DNA from: a virus
Lineage: Duplodnaviria > Heunggongvirae > Uroviricota > Caudoviricetes
DNA: 5,560 nt
Virus record (IMG/VR): IMGVR_UViG_2534681941_000049
Coordinates: 1 to 5,560 of that record
Strand: one strand, 5' to 3'
The position numbers and the translations under genes are program-made. Below the pieces are notes generated by a model. The model had not been told where the DNA came from and searched no databases. It worked only from the letters and a program-made list of their open reading frames with translations. Positions 1-5,560 of the stretch are shown piece after piece (the stretch's first letter is position 1; each line of letters starts with the position of its first letter).

Positions 1-114
1 GCGATGCGCCTGCAAGAGGCATCCGGCGGGGAACTTCAGTACGACCCCAAAGTTTATGACGAATATCGTAAGGCAAAGCGGGCGGGGCGGTTGAACAATG
101 AAAATCACCCCTGA
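1..114 (+). CDS. 3' end of an upstream gene (partial, start lies outside the window); product unknown
   Basis: Frame 1 is open from the window edge to TGA at 112-114 (…MRLQEASGGELQYDPKVYDEYRKAKRAGRLNNENHP*). Its end overlaps the ATG at 98 of the next gene, the same compact arrangement seen through the rest of the operon. Too short to assign a family. Confidence 0.3.
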   Translation, partial: AMRLQEASGGELQYDPKVYDEYRKAKRAGRLNNENHP

Positions 115-649
115 ACAGGTTTGTGAGGCTCTGGATGCCTGGGTGTGCCGACCAGGAATGACACAGGAACAGGCGACGATATTAATCACGGAAGCATTCT
201 GGGCTCTGAAAGAACGCCCGAACATCGATGTTCAACGCATCACGTTTAATGATGGCGAGGTTGATCAACGGGCGCTGGGCGTTAACCGGGTGAAGATATT
301 CGAACGCTGGAAAGCTATCGACACCAGAGATAAGCGTGACAAATTCACGGCGCTGATTCCGGCAATTATGGAGGCTATCCGGATCAGCGATTTCAGATTG
401 TATTGTGAAATTACTGACGGAAAAAGCATTACGTACATGATCGCCGGGTTAAACAAAGAATATGGCGATGTGGTGGAGTCCGGGCTGCTTTTTGCGGATC
501 CAGTTGTTGTGGAACGTGAGACTGACGAGCTTATAGAAAAAGCTATTGCTTTCAAGCACGCGTATCGTCAGCAATACCAATATTACTTTGCAGATAAACA
601 AATGTCTGCCAGGGGTTCGTATGAGTATCGATGCACTACGATGGGCTAA
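98..649 (+). CDS. YdaT-family protein (DUF1019-like; CII-like regulator of Rac-type prophages), 183 aa
   Basis: ATG at 98, TAA at 647-649. The N-terminal half (MKITPEQV…AW…; …KIFERWKAIDTRDKRDKFTALIPAIMEAI) matches my recollection of E. coli Rac YdaT (…KIFRWVEKDT…ALLPAIEK…). It sits immediately upstream of the replication initiator, as ydaT/cII does in Rac and lambdoid phages. Family call is from memory, not a search. Confidence 0.7.
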   Translation: MKITPEQVCEALDAWVCRPGMTQEQATILITEAFWALKERPNIDVQRITFNDGEVDQRALGVNRVKIFERWKAIDTRDKRDKFTALIPAIMEAIRISDFRLYCEITDGKSITYMIAGLNKEYGDVVESGLLFADPVVVERETDELIEKAIAFKHAYRQQYQYYFADKQMSARGSYEYRCTTMG

Positions 650-1661
650 AAAGGTGAAAACCGGCAGTTCATCCAGTAAGTCAGTATTGACCTGGCTTGC
701 TGATATGTGCGGTGCCGATTTGTGTGCATACCCGTCTGTATCTGCACTGGCAGAAGTAACGGAACTGAACAAAAAGACTGTGCAGGACAGCTTACGACAC
801 CTGATGGAGATTGGGTTAATTGTTGATACCGGTGAGAGAAAAGGCAGAACAAAGCAAATTGTGGTGTACCGACTTATCGGTGTAGAAGAAAGTGTTGCCG
901 AGCCTGAATACACCCAAAAACGGGTGTCTTTAAAGGTGGGTAAAATTGGTGCTGTTAATAAAAACAGTACCGAAAACGGTTATGTTTCAGCACAAAAGAG
1001 CCCCAAAAACGGAACTCTTTGTTGCATGGAAAATAACCAAAGACACCCAAATTTTCCATCAAAGACACCCAAAAACGGATCACGGAACCCAAAGGAACCC
1101 AAAGATCTAAACCCCACACATAACGCACGCGAGAGTGCTCCGACCAGTGAGCAGGAAGTTTTGTCGTTACAGGCAGCCCCCCATGTATTCCTGGATGGCC
1201 TGAGCGAACCCATCGGAAAATTTCCGATGACCGATAGCTGGTATCCGTCACGGGATTTTCGACGACGGGCTGCGTTGTGGGGGATGGCTTTGCCGGAGAC
1301 AGAATTTACACCTGCTGAACTTACCGCATTCCGGGACTACTGGGCAGCGGAGGGGAAAGTGTTTACGCAGATTCAGTGGGAGCAGAAATTCGCCCGTCAC
1401 GTAAATCACGTCAGGGCGCAGGTTAAACCAGTCAGCAAGGGGGTAAACCATGCAGCAGCACCAGGTGGCACCGCATCACGGGCAGTTCAGGAAATTCGGG
1501 CAGCACGTGAGCAGTGGGAACGTGAAAACGGATTTATCAGCGACGGAAACGGCCTGGAAGCTGTGGGAACTCATGGGGGAGGTTTATTCGAACCGCTGGA
1601 CCCAGAAGAACGGGGCCGCACCTTCGAAGCTCTGGATTGCACAGATTGGCGCGATGACTGA
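621..1661 (+). CDS. Phage replication initiator: N-terminal helix-turn-helix (O-like/HTH_36-type) domain plus C-terminal DnaT-like domain
   Basis: ATG at 621 preceded by AGGGG (611-615); the ORF-track start at 546 is a TTG and is less likely. N-terminus MSIDALRWAKKV…SVLTWLADMC…YPSVSALAEVTELNKKTVQDSLRHLMEIGLI is typical of phage replication-protein HTH domains. The C-terminal part (FPMTDSWYPSRDFRRRAALWGMALPETEFTPAELTAFRDYWAAEGKVFTQIQWEQKFARHV) resembles the DnaT C-terminal domain. A low-complexity P/K/N-rich linker separates them and the protein ends in an acidic tail (…DCTDWRDD). Stop TGA at 1659-1661. Confidence 0.8.
   Translation: MSIDALRWAKKVKTGSSSSKSVLTWLADMCGADLCAYPSVSALAEVTELNKKTVQDSLRHLMEIGLIVDTGERKGRTKQIVVYRLIGVEESVAEPEYTQKRVSLKVGKIGAVNKNSTENGYVSAQKSPKNGTLCCMENNQRHPNFPSKTPKNGSRNPKEPKDLNPTHNARESAPTSEQEVLSLQAAPHVFLDGLSEPIGKFPMTDSWYPSRDFRRRAALWGMALPETEFTPAELTAFRDYWAAEGKVFTQIQWEQKFARHVNHVRAQVKPVSKGVNHAAAPGGTASRAVQEIRAAREQWERENGFISDGNGLEAVGTHGGGLFEPLDPEERGRTFEALDCTDWRDD
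905..1120. repeat. Iteron-like direct repeats inside the initiator gene (putative replication origin)
   Basis: Direct repeats: aaagacacccaaa at 1039-1051 and 1061-1073 (22 bp apart); ggaacccaaag in tandem at 1084-1094 and 1094-1104; cacccaaaaacgg-type copies at 911-923 and 1066-1079, with variants ccccaaaaacgga (1001-1013) and accgaaaacgg (969-979). About seven copies of a (A/C)CCCAAA core in roughly 200 bp, all in the inter-domain linker of the initiator gene. Confidence 0.45.
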
Positions 1662-2115
1662 GCAGCAAATCCGGCAGGTCTGCCGCCAGTGCATGGACCG
1701 CTGCCGGGCGGGTGAAACATGGCCTCCGGACCTGGCTGAGTTTGTGGCACTGATTTCGAAAAGCGGAGCCAATCCATTCGGTCTGACGGTGGATGCTGTG
1801 ATGGAGGAGTACCGCCGCTGGCGCAATGAGTCCTGGCGATACGACGGAAGTGATAAGTACCCGTGGTCTCAGCCTGTGCTGTATCACATTTGCCTCGAGA
1901 TGCGTTCAAAGGGGATTGAGCGCCAGATGACCGAAGGGGAATTAAAACGGCTTGCAGAACGGCAACTGACGAAATGGGCAAAGCATGTTAGTAACGGCCT
2001 GAGCGTTCCGCCAGTACGGCGACAACTGGCGGCACCAAAACGCCCGTTGGGACCAACGCCAATTGAGTTGCTGAAACAGGAGTATGAACGCCGGAAAGCG
2101 GCTGGTTTTGTCTGA
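1450..2115 (+). CDS. Lambda P-like replication protein (replicative helicase loader)
   Basis: ATG at 1450 lies 6 nt after a strong SD AAGGGGG (1437-1443) and directly after an in-frame TAA (1444-1446). Clear similarity to my recollection of lambda P: ours …EFVALISK…[47 protein letters not shown]… versus lambda …GQFVAWCREE…YPWKSNAHYWLVTNLYQNMRANALTDAELRRKAADELVHMTARINRG…. Stop TGA at 2113-2115. Start is uncertain: in-frame alternatives are ATG 1573 and ATG 1654, the latter overlapping the upstream stop by 8 nt. Confidence 0.8.
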
Positions 2116-2149
2116 TTTGAGAAGTAATTTTTATCCGGAGGAAATTTTA

Positions 2150-2920
2150 ATGGGAACCGTATTGCATGCACTGAAAGCGATGGGTAAAGCCAATTCTGTT
2201 GAACTGGCGGCGCGGCTTGATATCAGCCGTGAAGAAGTTCTCAACGAACTGTGGGAACTCAAAAAAAATGGCGTTGTTGATAAAACGGGTCACACCTGGT
2301 TTCTGGCTGGTGAAGGTGAATCCGGGGTAACCGAAGAACAGCCAGCACAGTCTGAAGTACCGGATGTGCTGACCGGGGAGGTCGAACAAAAAGTTACTGC
2401 GGACATGATGATTGAGTTTATCTGTCAGGATGGGGCTAAAACGTGTGAGGAACTGGCGGATAAGTTCGGTGTTAGCATTCGCAAGGTTGCTTCCACGTTG
2501 GCGGTCGTAACAGCAACGGGGAGCCTGGCACGCGTAAATCAGAACGGTAAATTTCGTTACTGCATACCGGGCGCTGATTTACCGGCAGAGCCGGAAGCTG
2601 CATCGGTAACGGAAACCGATGGTAAAGCCTTTCCTCAGCCAACAGGTGTTGCGTTACCAGTCCGGGAAGCGGAAACACAGGAAGAAATAAAAACTGAAAG
2701 TGTGGCGGTCACAGTGCAGTCACAGCCGTTGTTCACCAGAAAACATCCGGATGGTCTGATTTTACCATCGCTGCATGTGGCTAACCGCGAGCTGCGCCGG
2801 GCAAAAGGTCAGGTTCAGAAGTGGGAGCGTGTCTGCGCCGCGCTGCGGGAGCTGAACAAGCACCGGGATATTGTTCGGCAGATTGTCGATTCATCCGGTC
2901 GTATTGTGTCGGAAAAGTGA
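2150..2920 (+). CDS. Tandem winged-helix DNA-binding protein, function unknown (possibly DUF1627-like)
   Basis: ATG at 2150 with GGAGG (2137-2141) 8 nt upstream; the ORF-track start at 2084 falls inside the P-like gene with a poorly spaced SD. Two wHTH-like segments ([28 protein letters not shown]; [32 protein letters not shown]), an acidic linker and a C-terminal coiled-coil-like region ([28 protein letters not shown]). Stop TGA at 2918-2920. Confidence 0.7.
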
Positions 2921-2935
2921 TTGCCGGAGGCGCTT

Positions 2936-3331
2936 ATGGCGAAACCTTTTACACACGAACAGCGTGAAGAACTGAAGGCCCGAATTATCGGGCTGGTACG
3001 CAAAAATGAACGCATGACGATATCACAACTGGAGAGAGCGACGGGAGCAGGCTGGCATTCAGTCAGACGTTGCCTTGTGGATGTACTGGCTTGCGGCGAT
3101 TTATACATGCCCGGTAAATACGGTGTTTTTACATCAGAACAGGTGTATCGCGTATGGCGTAAGGCAGCGGAGAAAACAACCGACCAGACATTGATTCGAA
3201 AGTTACCAGACGGAGAAATACGCCGCTACGACAGACAACAGAACATAATCTGTGGCGAGTGCCGGAAGAGTGAAGTTATGCTGCGTGTACTGGCGTTCTA
3301 TCAGGGCAATTTTCAGGAGGCGGTATTGTGA
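2936..3331 (+). CDS. Hypothetical protein, 131 aa; N-terminal wHTH-like segment and C-terminal CxxC motif
   Basis: ATG at 2936 with GGAGG (2926-2930) 5 nt upstream; the track start at 2921 is TTG. Sequence includes MTISQLERATGAGWHSVRRCLVDVLA (HTH-like) and …NIICGECRK…. Stop TGA at 3329-3331. Confidence 0.65.
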   Translation: MAKPFTHEQREELKARIIGLVRKNERMTISQLERATGAGWHSVRRCLVDVLACGDLYMPGKYGVFTSEQVYRVWRKAAEKTTDQTLIRKLPDGEIRRYDRQQNIICGECRKSEVMLRVLAFYQGNFQEAVL

Positions 3332-3744
3332 GTGAATTAGCTATCAGGCTTCAATTGTCGCTGGCATTCACATCAAAGGAGAAGAGCATGGAAATAAAAC
3401 CAGAAGATGAGTTAAGCAATATCGTTTTATTTCCGGTAAAAGAGGATGACCCACGTAATCAGGTTAATTTTCTTTATGAGCCATCGGAAAGAGCATATTG
3501 TCATCACGCCTCTGTTCGGGTTGACGAAAAAGAGCGTCAGGTCCGCTGTAAAATCTGCGGTGCAGTTGTGGAGCCATTTGACTGGATGCTCTCTGTGGCG
3601 AAAAGAGAAACCAGACTGGCAGATGATGTAAGGATCTTGCGCCAGGAGGAACGGGAAAGGCGGAGAAATATAGAAAAGCTAATTCAGATTGAGCGTAACG
3701 TGAAAGCGCGGATACGCAGGGTGACAAAATCCAGAACTGAATAA
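3328..3744 (+). CDS. Hypothetical zinc-ribbon (C-x-H…C-x2-C) protein with a basic coiled-coil C-terminus
   Basis: GTG at 3328 overlaps the upstream stop (GTGA) with AGGAGG (3315-3320) 7 nt upstream. Alternative start ATG 3388 with AAGGAG (3376-3381) 6 nt upstream; I cannot decide between them. Motif YCHHASVRVDEKERQVRCKICGAV suggests a zinc ribbon; the C-terminus RILRQEERERRRNIEKLIQIERNVKARIRR is basic and helical. Stop TAA at 3742-3744. Confidence 0.65.
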   Translation: MSELAIRLQLSLAFTSKEKSMEIKPEDELSNIVLFPVKEDDPRNQVNFLYEPSERAYCHHASVRVDEKERQVRCKICGAVVEPFDWMLSVAKRETRLADDVRILRQEERERRRNIEKLIQIERNVKARIRRVTKSRTE

Positions 3745-3772
3745 TTAAATTTAGCTCTGTTAAAAATTTAAT
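3744..3772. promoter_or_regulatory. AT-rich inverted repeat in an intergenic region (possible operator or promoter element)
   Basis: ATTAAATTT (3744-3752) and its exact reverse complement AAATTTAAT (3764-3772) flank an 11-bp spacer. It lies between the stop at 3744 and the SD GGAGG (3781-3785) of the next gene. An all-A/T stem is a poor intrinsic terminator, so a protein-binding site or promoter element is more plausible. Confidence 0.2.
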
Positions 3773-3792
3773 CCTTAACCGGAGGTATATCA

Positions 3793-4005
3793 ATGTCAAA
3801 CGCACAGAAAGTTATTAACGCTGAAAAATATAACGAGTGGGTGAAAAAGTTCTCAGAGCAGATTTTTAAAATTACTGGCGACGAGAATGCGGCAAAAAAT
3901 GAATTAGAGCCGTGGACACCTGAAGGTGTCGACCCAAATTATTGCTGGTGGGATGTTGATCCAGTTGATGCTGCAAATGAAGCTATGAGTTATCACAACG
4001 ATTAA
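3793..4005 (+). CDS. Small acidic hypothetical protein, 70 aa
   Basis: ATG at 3793 with GGAGG (3781-3785) 7 nt upstream; stop TAA at 4003-4005. About 14 D/E versus 6 K (net charge about -8); W-rich C-terminal half (PNYCWWDVDPVDAANEA). Confidence 0.6.
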   Translation: MSNAQKVINAEKYNEWVKKFSEQIFKITGDENAAKNELEPWTPEGVDPNYCWWDVDPVDAANEAMSYHND

Positions 4006-4014
4006 TGTCAGGAG

Positions 4015-4032
4015 GCCGCCCGAAAGGGCGGT
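4015..4032 (+). promoter_or_regulatory. GC-rich stem-loop with GAAA tetraloop between the SD and the start codon of the 4041 gene
   Basis: gCCGCCC-GAAA-GGGCGGt: ccgccc (4016-4021) pairs with gggcgg (4026-4031), loop gaaa. It lies immediately after AGGAGG (4010-4015) and 9 nt before GTG 4041. No downstream U-tract, so not a classical terminator. Confidence 0.3.
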
Positions 4033-4040
4033 AATGAAAA

Positions 4041-4412
4041 GTGACTGAATTAACCAAAGAGAAATTAATCGAAGAAGCCAAATTAAAAATAGCGATTGCG
4101 AAATGCTACCCCAATTCAGGGATGGCACGGGTAGAGGGCGAGTTATTCAAAATTGCACTGGCATCGCTGGAAGCAGAACCGATAGCGTGGGAATGCGGTG
4201 AAAACATAATCCTGTTTAACCCTGACACAGTTGAAGCATACGCAAAACGTGCGGAAATATCACCTAAACCACTATTCTCCGCGCCGCCAGCGCTGGTAGT
4301 GCCTGATAAGTTGCCGCGTGAATACAGAAACGGTTGGCCTCTTGCGTATAGTGATTATGCTGAAGGCTGGAACGACTGCCGCGAAGCCATGCTTCAGGGA
4401 GATAAATCATGA
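4041..4412 (+). CDS. Hypothetical protein, 123 aa
   Basis: GTG at 4041 is the only start available after the in-frame TGA at 4035-4037; the next in-frame ATG is at 4122. The nearest SD (AGGAGG 4010-4015) is about 25 nt upstream unless the intervening hairpin shortens the effective spacing. Stop TGA at 4410-4412 overlaps the next start (ATGA). Confidence 0.6.
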   Translation: MTELTKEKLIEEAKLKIAIAKCYPNSGMARVEGELFKIALASLEAEPIAWECGENIILFNPDTVEAYAKRAEISPKPLFSAPPALVVPDKLPREYRNGWPLAYSDYAEGWNDCREAMLQGDKS

Positions 4413-4759
4413 TTAATCGTATCAAGCTGGAGCACATCCTCGAATATGCCAGGCAGCAGAGGCATATTGGTCAGCATTGTAAAATTCCACCAGGAGATAT
4501 GGTTGAAATCATGGAGATTGCCATGCGCAAGGCTGGCAACTCTCCGGTAACTCCGGATGGTTGGATAAGCTGTAGTGAGCGAATGCCGGAGAAATACGAT
4601 TTCGATATCTGGGTATTCTCTCCATCCAGAGGTGTTCTTGACGGGCTACAGTGGGATGGCTCGATGTTTACTGATGATGAATATCAGTTCGTTATTCATG
4701 ACGCCACGCATTGGATGAGAAAAGTATATCCAGCAGCACCGCAGCAGGATGGTGAATGA
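4409..4759 (+). CDS. DUF551-like phage protein, 116 aa
   Basis: ATG at 4409 with GGGAGA (4397-4402) 6 nt upstream, overlapping the upstream stop. Motif GWISCSERMPEKYDFDIWVF…DATHWMRKVYPAAP resembles the DUF551 pattern as I recall it (W-I-x-V-x-D-R-L-P-E … T-H-W-M-P-L-P). Confidence 0.7.
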   Translation: MINRIKLEHILEYARQQRHIGQHCKIPPGDMVEIMEIAMRKAGNSPVTPDGWISCSERMPEKYDFDIWVFSPSRGVLDGLQWDGSMFTDDEYQFVIHDATHWMRKVYPAAPQQDGE

Positions 4760-4845
4760 TGCCGCCAGTTAAAGTTGTGATTATCACTTTGGTGATGATA
4801 GTGATTGCGAGAATCATGTCTGGTGAAATTGTGTGGATATGGTAA
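4756..4845 (+). CDS. Small hydrophobic peptide ORF, 29 aa, predicted single transmembrane helix (not in the ORF track)
   Basis: ATG at 4756 overlaps the DUF551 stop TGA 4757-4759 (ATGA coupling); a second in-frame ATG is at 4759. Translation: MMPPVKVVIITLVMIVIARIMSGEIVWIW, stop TAA at 4843-4845. Weak SD-like CAGGAT/GGTGA just upstream. Followed within about 35 nt by terminator hairpins. Confidence 0.4.
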   Translation: MMPPVKVVIITLVMIVIARIMSGEIVWIW

Positions 4846-4878
4846 TGGCTAAGGCAGCAGCAGAGCGCAACTAACAAT

Positions 4879-4907
4879 CCTCGCACTCGCGGGGATTTCT
4901 TTTATCT
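4879..4907 (+). terminator. Putative intrinsic terminator (first of a tandem pair)
   Basis: cctcgc (4879-4884) pairs with gcgggg (4889-4894), including one G-U pair, loop acuc; followed by ATTTCTTTTATCT (4895-4907). Confidence 0.4.
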
Positions 4908-4908
4908 G

Positions 4909-4933
4909 AACTCGCTACGGCGAGTTTTGTTTT
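4909..4933 (+). terminator. Putative intrinsic (rho-independent) terminator
   Basis: Perfect 7-bp stem AACTCGC (4909-4915) / GCGAGTT (4920-4926) with loop TACG, followed by the T-tract TTTTGTTTT (4925-4933). Confidence 0.6.
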
Positions 4934-4946
4934 ATGGAGACAAGAA

Positions 4947-5291
4947 ATGTCAGATTTGGCTATGAAGGTTTTGAAATGGCAATCAACTGGCGATGTCGGC
5001 ATCAGTAGCGCAACTCTTGCCTCAATCGCATGTGGCCTGAAAAAGAATATCTATGGTCATGGCTTCGGTGCTCCACATGACGCAGCCGATTTCAGACGAT
5101 GCGTTGCACTTGTTGAGCAGATTCCAGAAATCAGAGATTCATTCGACAAGGTTGCAAAGCGCGTTCCGGCATTCAAAGGAATCCTCAACGAATGGGATTC
5201 CCTCGTTGCTCTGTTGAAGTCTGAAATGAAGATACACGGAAACAAAGCACCAGAGACTTACAGAAGAATCAGCGAGCTACGCAAGGACTAA
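4947..5291 (+). CDS. Hypothetical protein, 114 aa; moron-like gene bracketed by terminators
   Basis: ATG at 4947 with GGAGA (4936-4940) 6 nt upstream; stop TAA at 5289-5291. No family recognised (MSDLAMKVLKWQSTGDVGISSATLASIACGLKKNIYGHGFGAPHDAADFRRCVALVEQIPEIR…). Confidence 0.65.
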   Translation: MSDLAMKVLKWQSTGDVGISSATLASIACGLKKNIYGHGFGAPHDAADFRRCVALVEQIPEIRDSFDKVAKRVPAFKGILNEWDSLVALLKSEMKIHGNKAPETYRRISELRKD

Positions 5292-5328
5292 CGCCTCACA
5301 CTCGATGAGGCCTGTTCATATCTGATAG

Positions 5329-5353
5329 AGCCGCTATATGGCGGTTTCTTTTT
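5329..5353 (+). terminator. Putative intrinsic terminator downstream of the 114-aa gene
   Basis: Stem agccgc (5329-5334) / gcgguu (5341-5346), loop tatatg, followed by TTTCTTTTT (to 5353). A second perfect hairpin gcctca-cactcga-tgaggc (5293-5311) lies just upstream but lacks a U-tract. Confidence 0.5.
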
Positions 5354-5368
5354 GCCTGGAGAATTAAG

Positions 5369-5560
5369 ATGACCGATACCAGCCTGATTCCTGAGAAAGA
5401 AGTGATGAACAAGCTCGGTGTTTCATCACGTCAGACAATCTGGAACTATACCAAACGGCACGGATTTCCGAAGCCAGTCAGAACCCACCCCAAATCATAC
5501 CTTCGTGAAGCTGTTGAAGGGTGGATTCTTAACGGTGGCGTTAATCAGAAATGCTCCTGA
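5369..5560 (+). CDS. alpA: AlpA-family (Phage_AlpA / excisionase-like HTH) transcriptional regulator, 63 aa
   Basis: ATG at 5369 with GGAGA (5358-5362) 6 nt upstream; stop TGA at 5558-5560 at the window end. Sequence LIPEKEVMNKLGVSSRQTIWNYTKRHGFPKPVRTHPKSYLREAVEGWI has the AlpA-family signature (…L…R.TIY…K.G.FPKPV…G…W…EV..WI). Confidence 0.85.
   Translation: MTDTSLIPEKEVMNKLGVSSRQTIWNYTKRHGFPKPVRTHPKSYLREAVEGWILNGGVNQKCS

Follow-up and report, generated by a model that had tools for sequence, protein, structure and literature searches.

A candidate gene for a translationally coupled membrane micropeptide downstream of DUF551 in lambdoid prophages

A small ORF overlapping the DUF551 gene

The viral DNA analyzed here, positions 1 to 5,560 of the IMG/VR record IMGVR_UViG_2534681941_000049 (Caudoviricetes; the whole stretch of 5,560 nucleotides (nt) is called the window), carries a small open reading frame (ORF) of 29 amino acids (aa) whose start codon overlaps the stop codon of a gene encoding a DUF551 domain. 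On balance we judge it probable, though only somewhat so, that this small ORF is a genuine gene, translationally coupled to the DUF551 gene, for a membrane-associated micropeptide of 28-29 residues, and that it is an accessory cassette of lambdoid prophages. The ORF and its overlap with the DUF551 stop had been noticed in an earlier inspection of the letters alone (the sequence-only reading), and both were found where that reading placed them. The features on which the argument depends are the following:

4409..4759, plus strand: DUF551 gene, 116 aa (Pfam PF04448, E 4.9e-10; RefSeq 'DUF551 domain-containing protein')
4746..4755, plus strand: Shine-Dalgarno-like sequence AGGATGGTGA, directly adjoining the ATG at 4756 (spacing 0 nt) and separated from the ATG at 4759 by 3 nt
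4756..4845, plus strand: small ORF, 29 aa, MMPPVKVVIITLVMIVIARIMSGEIVWIW, with stop codon TAA at 4843-4845
4768..4827, plus strand: hydrophobic core of the small ORF, codons 5-24, VKVVIITLVMIVIARIMSGE, the least variable segment of the module

The ATG at 4756-4758 overlaps the DUF551 stop codon TGA (4757-4759) in the form ATGA, and a second in-frame ATG follows directly at 4759, from which a peptide of 28 aa would be made. Conservation of the two starts was compared in 73 loci drawn from Escherichia coli genomes, phages, IMG/VR and metagenomes. The ATG at 4756 was replaced by ATA in nine loci and by GTG in two. The ATG at 4759 was kept in all loci except L024 (ATT), L017 (GTG) and a chimeric ORF in PEC411; it is thus the better conserved of the two and may be the start that is used. 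Where the first ATG is changed to ATA the DUF551 stop becomes TAA instead of TGA and the second ATG stays, and L017, which has lost 1 nt, still has a GTG start in frame.

The ribosome-binding site lies in the terminal codons of the DUF551 gene (Q-Q-D-G-E followed by the TGA stop), which also overlap the small ORF at its start. The calculated duplex between AGGATGGTGA and the 3' end of 16S rRNA reached -11.9/-12.4 kcal/mol, among the strongest values in the window, where only 18% of all ATG codons reach -7 kcal/mol or better. In the other allelic upstream variants the Shine-Dalgarno (SD) duplex ranged from -6.5 to -12.4 kcal/mol, with -2.7 kcal/mol in the in-frame chimera of PEC411. The small ORF therefore has a start codon and a ribosome-binding site at proper spacing, as expected of a protein-coding gene. 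The overlap by itself had been taken as an argument for translation. Neither the ATGA overlap alone nor the length of the ORF alone was significant, but translation is plausible when the strong SD, the double ATG, the stop-start overlap and the intact frame are considered together.

The sequence GTGAT occurs three times in codon phase within the ORF, at 4777, 4792 and 4801, and GTGATTATCAC at 4777-4787 is a perfect palindrome. Both may simply reflect Val-Ile and Val-Met codon pairs.

Hydrophobicity of the peptide

The peptide has a grand average of hydropathy (GRAVY) of 1.76, and its best 19-residue Kyte-Doolittle window scores 2.28, compared with the usual cut-off of 1.6. This composition is reflected in the codons, since T occupies the second position in 18 of the 29 and a purine the first position in 23 of the 29. 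When the small ORF was shuffled with its dinucleotides preserved, just 10% of the shuffled sequences stayed open, and a single one among 2,052 open shuffles was as hydrophobic as the ORF itself, giving a joint probability of about 5e-5 for being open and this hydrophobic. Composition thus does not account for the hydrophobic pattern, which is tied to one codon phase. A comparison with natural sequences was made using ATG ORFs of 25-45 aa found in 766 kb of related phage DNA, read in all six frames; a GRAVY of 1.76 was reached by 0.2% of these 1,873 distinct ORFs.

Variation among loci

The 73 loci represent 16 haplotypes, and none contained an insertion or deletion inside the small ORF or an internal stop. 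The frame was therefore intact among relatives, the outcome that the sequence-only reading had proposed as a check, apart from the stop at W29 in L032, the start lost in L024 and the in-frame chimera in PEC411. Because divergence is low, this test of frame intactness is weak. Frameshifts would have shown in the metagenome scan, since it tolerated +/-10 nt between the head and tail anchors. The possibility that an amino-acid-constrained scan had biased the count of synonymous and nonsynonymous changes in the core was considered and rejected: head- and tail-anchored DNA scans of IMG/VR gave no contigs beyond the 40 already found by the constrained scan, so the variation in the core is not an artefact of ascertainment.

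The changes observed were as follows:

Synonymous: codon 7 (twice) and codons 9, 13 and 20
Replacements: M1V, M1I, M2I, P3L, P4S, I10T, M14I, R19K, I25V, G26V, G26W and W29stop

Variable sites per nt numbered 0.08 in the core, 0.27 in the following 30 nt and 0.50 in codons 1-4. Core substitutions were biased towards the third codon position (6/8), and comprised five synonymous changes and three conservative or mild replacements (I10T, M14I and R19K). At both ends of the ORF, on the other hand, all changes (9/9) were replacements.

Ancestral context and origin of the terminators

In seven contigs from phages and metagenomes (five of them L015, L020, L025, L051 and L054) the small ORF was followed not by terminators but by a gene of 112-114 aa beginning with MAKAAAERKAAQRARQ, here called gene X, which belongs to phrog_536, a family annotated as 'transcriptional regulator'. 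The ATG of gene X overlaps the TAA of the small ORF as TAATG, so that the small ORF fits exactly between DUF551 and gene X and overlaps both. Genes terS and terL come after gene X where the contig is long enough (L020 and L054), and the neighbours in this ancestral context are Ead/Ea22, DUF7446, DUF551, gene X and the terminase genes. In the window only the 5' end of gene X is left, followed by two hairpins:

4845..4874, plus strand: nine-codon stub MAKAAAERN (ATG GCT AAG GCA GCA GCA GAG CGC AAC TAA), 5' end of gene X
4876..4907, plus strand: intrinsic terminator 1 (hairpin 4876-4897), with 9-bp stem, 4-nt loop and U-tract
4908..4937, plus strand: intrinsic terminator 2 (hairpin 4908-4927), with 8-bp stem, 4-nt loop and U-tract

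The stub consists of the first eight codons of gene X, followed by AAC TAA; at 4870/4871 homology ends and the terminator module starts, while in L015, L020, L025, L051 and L054 the same bases run on into the full gene X. The presence of this stub in the window indicates that the arrangement of small ORF plus tandem terminators is secondary. This derived arrangement was found in 62 of 71 loci. The two hairpins have the form of intrinsic (rho-independent) terminators and termination at both is predicted; they fold as two clean stem-loops (z = -2.5), and terminator 1 is 93% identical to the 'tL4 terminator' of the HK022 int-xis record X51962. The earlier statement that two terminators follow the ORF was thus right as to the two hairpins with T-runs, but they were not part of the original unit, having replaced the gene of which the stub remains. 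A leader-peptide or attenuation role for the terminators was also considered. The stop codon of the small ORF lies 31 nt upstream of the first hairpin, and only that of the stub (4872-4874) comes close to the stem, 2 nt before its start at 4876; as a speculation, a ribosome ending on the stub could mask the first terminator hairpin.

Phage EC.P3 (L013) carries the small ORF and lacks both terminators (window 4871-4933), its stub being joined directly to the ribosome-binding site of the 114-aa gene of phrog_1229. In E. coli PEC411 (L007 1188-1265) the frame of the small ORF from codon 12 on is preceded by the first codons (MTEEFT) of the DUF2737 gene that follows abc2, and the resulting in-frame chimera reads MTEEFTILVMIVIARIMSGEIGWIW.

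Small hydrophobic ORFs after other DUF551 genes

The position after DUF551 was examined in IMG/VR, where 78 DUF551 loci could be evaluated. A hydrophobic ORF of at most 45 aa was present within -8 to +12 nt in 38 of these 78 loci, and the hydrophobic ORFs belonged to at least four unrelated families; a small ORF that was not hydrophobic occurred in only one of the 78. The present small ORF shares this position and type, being near the DUF551 stop, on the same strand, no longer than 45 aa and hydrophobic. In loci L055-L134 the conserved C-terminus of DUF551, PEPPQEV, is encoded by CAGGAGGTG, a perfect SD sequence, which is also a mosaic boundary after which many alternative genes and cassettes occur. 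Two of the positional analogues are:

L014 1301-1384 (O157:H7 strain TR01, NZ_CP033605.1, about 1748800): 27-aa ORF MIWPEAFAITGVAIAIDFLVYVICRWG, not called by the Prokaryotic Genome Annotation Pipeline (PGAP)
L128 284-409 and L133 about 1776-1898: 40-aa hydrophobic ORF of phrog_5525, between DUF551 and the phrog_536 gene

The 27-aa ORF lies in a second O157 prophage, the source of positions 1-4588 of the window, in which it begins at an ATGA overlap with DUF551; next come an annotated hydrophobic protein of 34 aa (WP_001278450.1) and then hokD. Members of its family (M-x-W-P-E-A-F...V-Y-S-I-C-R-W-G) showed 55-89% identity across 93 phage records; judged by this range of identity, the family is clearly conserved as a protein and under protein-level selection. 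It resembles the present ORF (compare ASL59204.1, 'hypothetical protein FORC44_3281') in its place after DUF551, strand, ATGA overlap, SD in the C-terminal codons of DUF551, similar size, single hydrophobic stretch and aromatic C-terminus, but it is much more diverse, whereas the present ORF is nearly invariant. Homology between the two was considered and rejected (hhalign probability 0.8%). The phrog_5525 ORF fills the same slot, with DUF551 before it, gene X after it and the terminase genes farther downstream, and it overlaps DUF551 as well as gene X, the GTG start of the latter by 8 nt; it differs in being unrelated in sequence, longer, and recognised as a PHROG family of unknown function.

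A broader proposal would be that the small ORFs after DUF551 are interchangeable members of one functional slot, each supplying a micropeptide partner at fixed stoichiometry with DUF551 or with the phrog_536 regulator, for example as a tethering or gating partner at the membrane. DUF551 and micropeptide would then form an unrecognised two-gene lambdoid module, with CAGGAGGTG serving both as ribosome-binding site and as recombination boundary. We regard this joint proposal as improbable.

Distribution and annotation

DNA of the small ORF was present in 10 of 50,697 phage records, among them the Stx2c phages 1717 and 2851, and in 222 of 5,426 complete E. coli genomes (about 4%), and it was also found in 40 IMG/VR contigs and 20 metagenome contigs; one protein variant is recorded from Shigella flexneri. 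All copies were at least 94% identical in DNA and confined to prophages of E. coli and Shigella. A search with a relaxed hydrophobic-codon pattern gave no match in 185,579 species-representative genomes. The tblastn comparison proposed with the sequence-only reading recovered 10 near-identical copies among phages and nothing beyond them. The element is young or narrowly spread, and without deep conservation selection tests have little power.

The ORF had been called unannotated and likely to be missed by standard annotation. This holds for RefSeq and for some depositors: none of the 12 annotated records that were inspected (eight E. coli records of RefSeq, four phage records of GenBank) calls it. 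It does not hold for GenBank as a whole, where Prodigal-type annotators do call the ORF and the exact peptide is entered as 'hypothetical protein' (BBC51094.1, STF23722.1 and others, about 1,000 contigs), together with three variants. Neither two translatome papers on enterohaemorrhagic E. coli nor a full-text search with peptide fragments gave a ribosome-profiling or proteomic record of the peptide, and it did not appear in the accessible part of the supplementary files of the Enterobacteriaceae microprotein catalogue (PMC11188072).

Both the narrow distribution of these near-identical copies and the absence of the ORF from RefSeq, from the translation records and from the catalogue weigh against a functional micropeptide gene, as do several observations on the sequence itself. 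The peptide had been described as almost entirely hydrophobic and as consistent with a single membrane-spanning helix. Its GRAVY value makes membrane association plausible, but R19 and E24 fall in the putative helix and break the hydrophobic run, the uninterrupted stretch V7-A18 has 12 residues only, and the unweighted Hessa sum of the best 19-mer is +1.9 kcal/mol. Given these interruptions and this sum beside the Kyte-Doolittle score, insertion as a canonical membrane helix is plausible, with an efficiency that is not assured. To the same side belong the loss of the canonical start in L024, the stop at W29 in L032, and position 26, which may be G, V or W and at which the V of the window is a minority allele. 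The PEC411 chimera places a recombination junction inside the ORF, and many close relatives lack the small ORF and have the terminators immediately after DUF551. Over the whole ORF the ratio of synonymous to nonsynonymous changes was 5:12, about the neutral value. The antisense frame scored 6:11 overall and 4:4 in the core, and because it shares third positions with the sense frame and scores similarly, the substitutions alone cannot choose the strand. Finally, mosaic history may explain part of the contrast between the little-varying core and its more variable flanks. That contrast was considered as proof of selection and then downgraded to limited weight, since the flanking DUF551 and gene X alleles are diverged and came in by recombination.

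Alternative explanations

These points could be accommodated if the small ORF were young and had no function under selection, as a proto-gene or a passenger, its 90 nt being a spacer carried between DUF551 and the next module. It might be translated by way of the SD in the 3' end of DUF551, the peptide would be inert, and the uniformity of the copies would reflect recent spread. The narrow distribution with at least 94% identity, the near-neutral ratio of changes, the variable C-terminal tail, the startless haplotype, the junction inside the ORF and its dispensability in close relatives are all as expected of such a passenger, and in Enterobacteriaceae the hydrophobicity of intergenic small ORFs partly follows from AT-rich sequence (PMC11188072). 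The same explanation fits less well with the codon-phase-specific hydrophobic pattern of the present ORF, with a core that varies less than any other part of the module and whose changes are concentrated at third positions, with the exact fit between two genes that it overlaps, and with the recurrence in the slot of unrelated small hydrophobic ORFs, one of them clearly conserved as a protein. We therefore consider a passenger rather unlikely, though it is the main rival. Functions of a different kind were proposed, by conjecture, in the sequence-only reading, namely those of toxic or regulatory peptides such as type I toxins, holins or antiholins, host-killing peptides or superinfection-exclusion peptides. 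A toxic peptide that damages the membrane would act in host killing or abortive infection or in the manner of a type I toxin or holin. The type I toxins of E. coli include IbsC (19 aa), ShoB (26 aa), TisB (29 aa) and Hok (about 50 aa), which like the present peptide are very small, strongly hydrophobic and possibly a single helix; in size and composition the resemblance to the Ibs, ShoB and TisB types is evident, and the second O157 prophage has hokD after DUF551 and two small hydrophobic ORFs. However, the peptide gave no match in Pfam, PHROG, NCBIfam, PADLOC or PDB sequences (E-value limits 10 for Pfam and 1 for NCBIfam and PADLOC), and in particular no match in Pfam, NCBIfam or PADLOC to the toxin families Hok/Gef, Ldr, Ibs, TisB, ShoB, Zor and DinQ. 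Nor does the ORF form an independent unit with an antisense RNA antitoxin: it lies inside a phage operon with its start overlapping the upstream stop, in place of a promoter and long 5' untranslated region of its own; promoter-like matches on the opposite strand were at chance level, and an Rfam scan of 4300-5560 gave no match. A holin or antiholin is contradicted by the length of 29 aa, against the typical 60-150 aa, and by the lack of lysis genes beside the ORF in the context of the window and in the ancestral context. Neither the toxin nor the holin assignment was thus borne out, and a toxic peptide of either kind seems distinctly improbable.

A last group of explanations places the function outside the sense peptide, either in the nucleic acid, as a 3' untranslated region or spacer, a recombination boundary or a protein-binding site formed by the GTGAT repeats and GTGATTATCAC, or in an ORF on the other strand:

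4692..4886, minus strand: antisense ORF, 64 aa, sharing third codon positions with the small ORF

The threefold occurrence of GTGAT in phase would suit a binding site, but an RNA structure score of z = -0.5 and the Rfam result speak against a structured element. The antisense frame is open in all contexts and fits the substitutions about as well as the sense frame. Its openness is automatic, however, since RTN codons on the sense strand make the antisense frame read AYN, which is never a stop. The antisense ORF changes in length between 41 and 93 aa, its start codon and its two ends are not fixed, and it runs opposite to every neighbouring gene. The only promoter-like match on the antisense strand, at 4822-4795, agrees in 9 of 12 positions, and four such matches were found where 3.0 +/- 1.8 were expected by chance. 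As a gene the antisense ORF was accordingly rejected as a shadow of the sense frame, and this whole group of explanations is highly improbable.

Comparison with chromosomal small membrane proteins

The micropeptide reading, which we prefer, finds parallels among the small inner-membrane proteins encoded on the E. coli chromosome, such as KdpF (29 aa), MgtS (31 aa) and AcrZ (49 aa). These proteins, like the entries of the microprotein catalogue, have fewer than 50 aa, mostly a single hydrophobic helix, and are often unannotated; the present ORF differs in being prophage-borne and in occurring in a few percent of E. coli strains. Intergenic small ORFs of Enterobacteriaceae are mostly hydrophobic, and of those that point the same way as the upstream gene about 13% have their start no more than 10 nt from its stop (PMC11188072). 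The peptide is thus an uncharacterised case of a well-described class, the small hydrophobic proteins missed by annotation.

Proposed expression, role and significance

Under the preferred reading, translation of the micropeptide would be coupled to that of DUF551, with ribosomes either re-initiating at the ATGA or being recruited directly by the SD AGGATGGTGA. The small ORF would be a mobile accessory cassette of lambdoid E. coli and Shigella prophages, with DUF551 - small ORF - gene X (phrog_536) - terminase as the probable ancestral order. In the Stx2c-phage lineage, recombination within the first codons of gene X would have set the small ORF before tL4-type terminators. The small ORF would thereby have come to lie last in the leftward early operon, with the AlpA-like gene and int next, and such a distal position suggests that a lysogen would make the peptide after prophage induction, and not constitutively. 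Judged by composition, the peptide would most likely insert in the inner membrane with K6 cytoplasmic, V7-M21 in the bilayer and the Trp-rich tail at the outer interface. It would then bind or modulate a membrane protein, or perturb the membrane, as small membrane proteins usually do.

If the gene is real, the accessory genes of Shiga-toxin-converting prophages include one for a further small membrane peptide, which escapes pangenome and functional screens because RefSeq omits it. The wider pattern is perhaps more useful. Half of the sampled DUF551 genes precede a coupled small hydrophobic ORF, and these ORFs come from several unrelated families, so the pairing of DUF551 with a micropeptide offers a handle on a widespread phage domain of unknown function, with natural swap variants.

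Source of the window and remaining features

Positions 4150-5560 match, at 100% identity, the integrase-proximal end of the Stx2c-converting phages 1717 and 2851 as well as the O157:H7 prophage beside sbcB. Positions 1-4588 match another O157:H7 prophage on its replication/nin side (TR01 1744033-1748620), and the segment common to both matches is 439 bp (4150-4588). Because the two parts match different O157 prophages, the window is a hybrid of two O157:H7 prophage regions with the junction inside 4150-4588. No contiguous copy of the window was present in any of the 5,426 complete E. coli genomes; the recombination may be real, or the window may be a chimera made in assembly.

Downstream of the two terminators the window contains the following features:

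4947..5291, plus strand: gene of 114 aa, phrog_1229, of unknown function
5328-5347: third terminator-like hairpin with T-run, between the phrog_1229 gene and the AlpA-like gene
5369..5560: AlpA-like gene, followed by int in the context of the window

The phrog_1229 gene would be reached only by read-through of the two terminators. With the hairpin at 5328-5347, each small transcription segment before int is bounded by terminators. The end of the window at 5560 coincides with the ends of the IMG/VR contigs L021 and L030.

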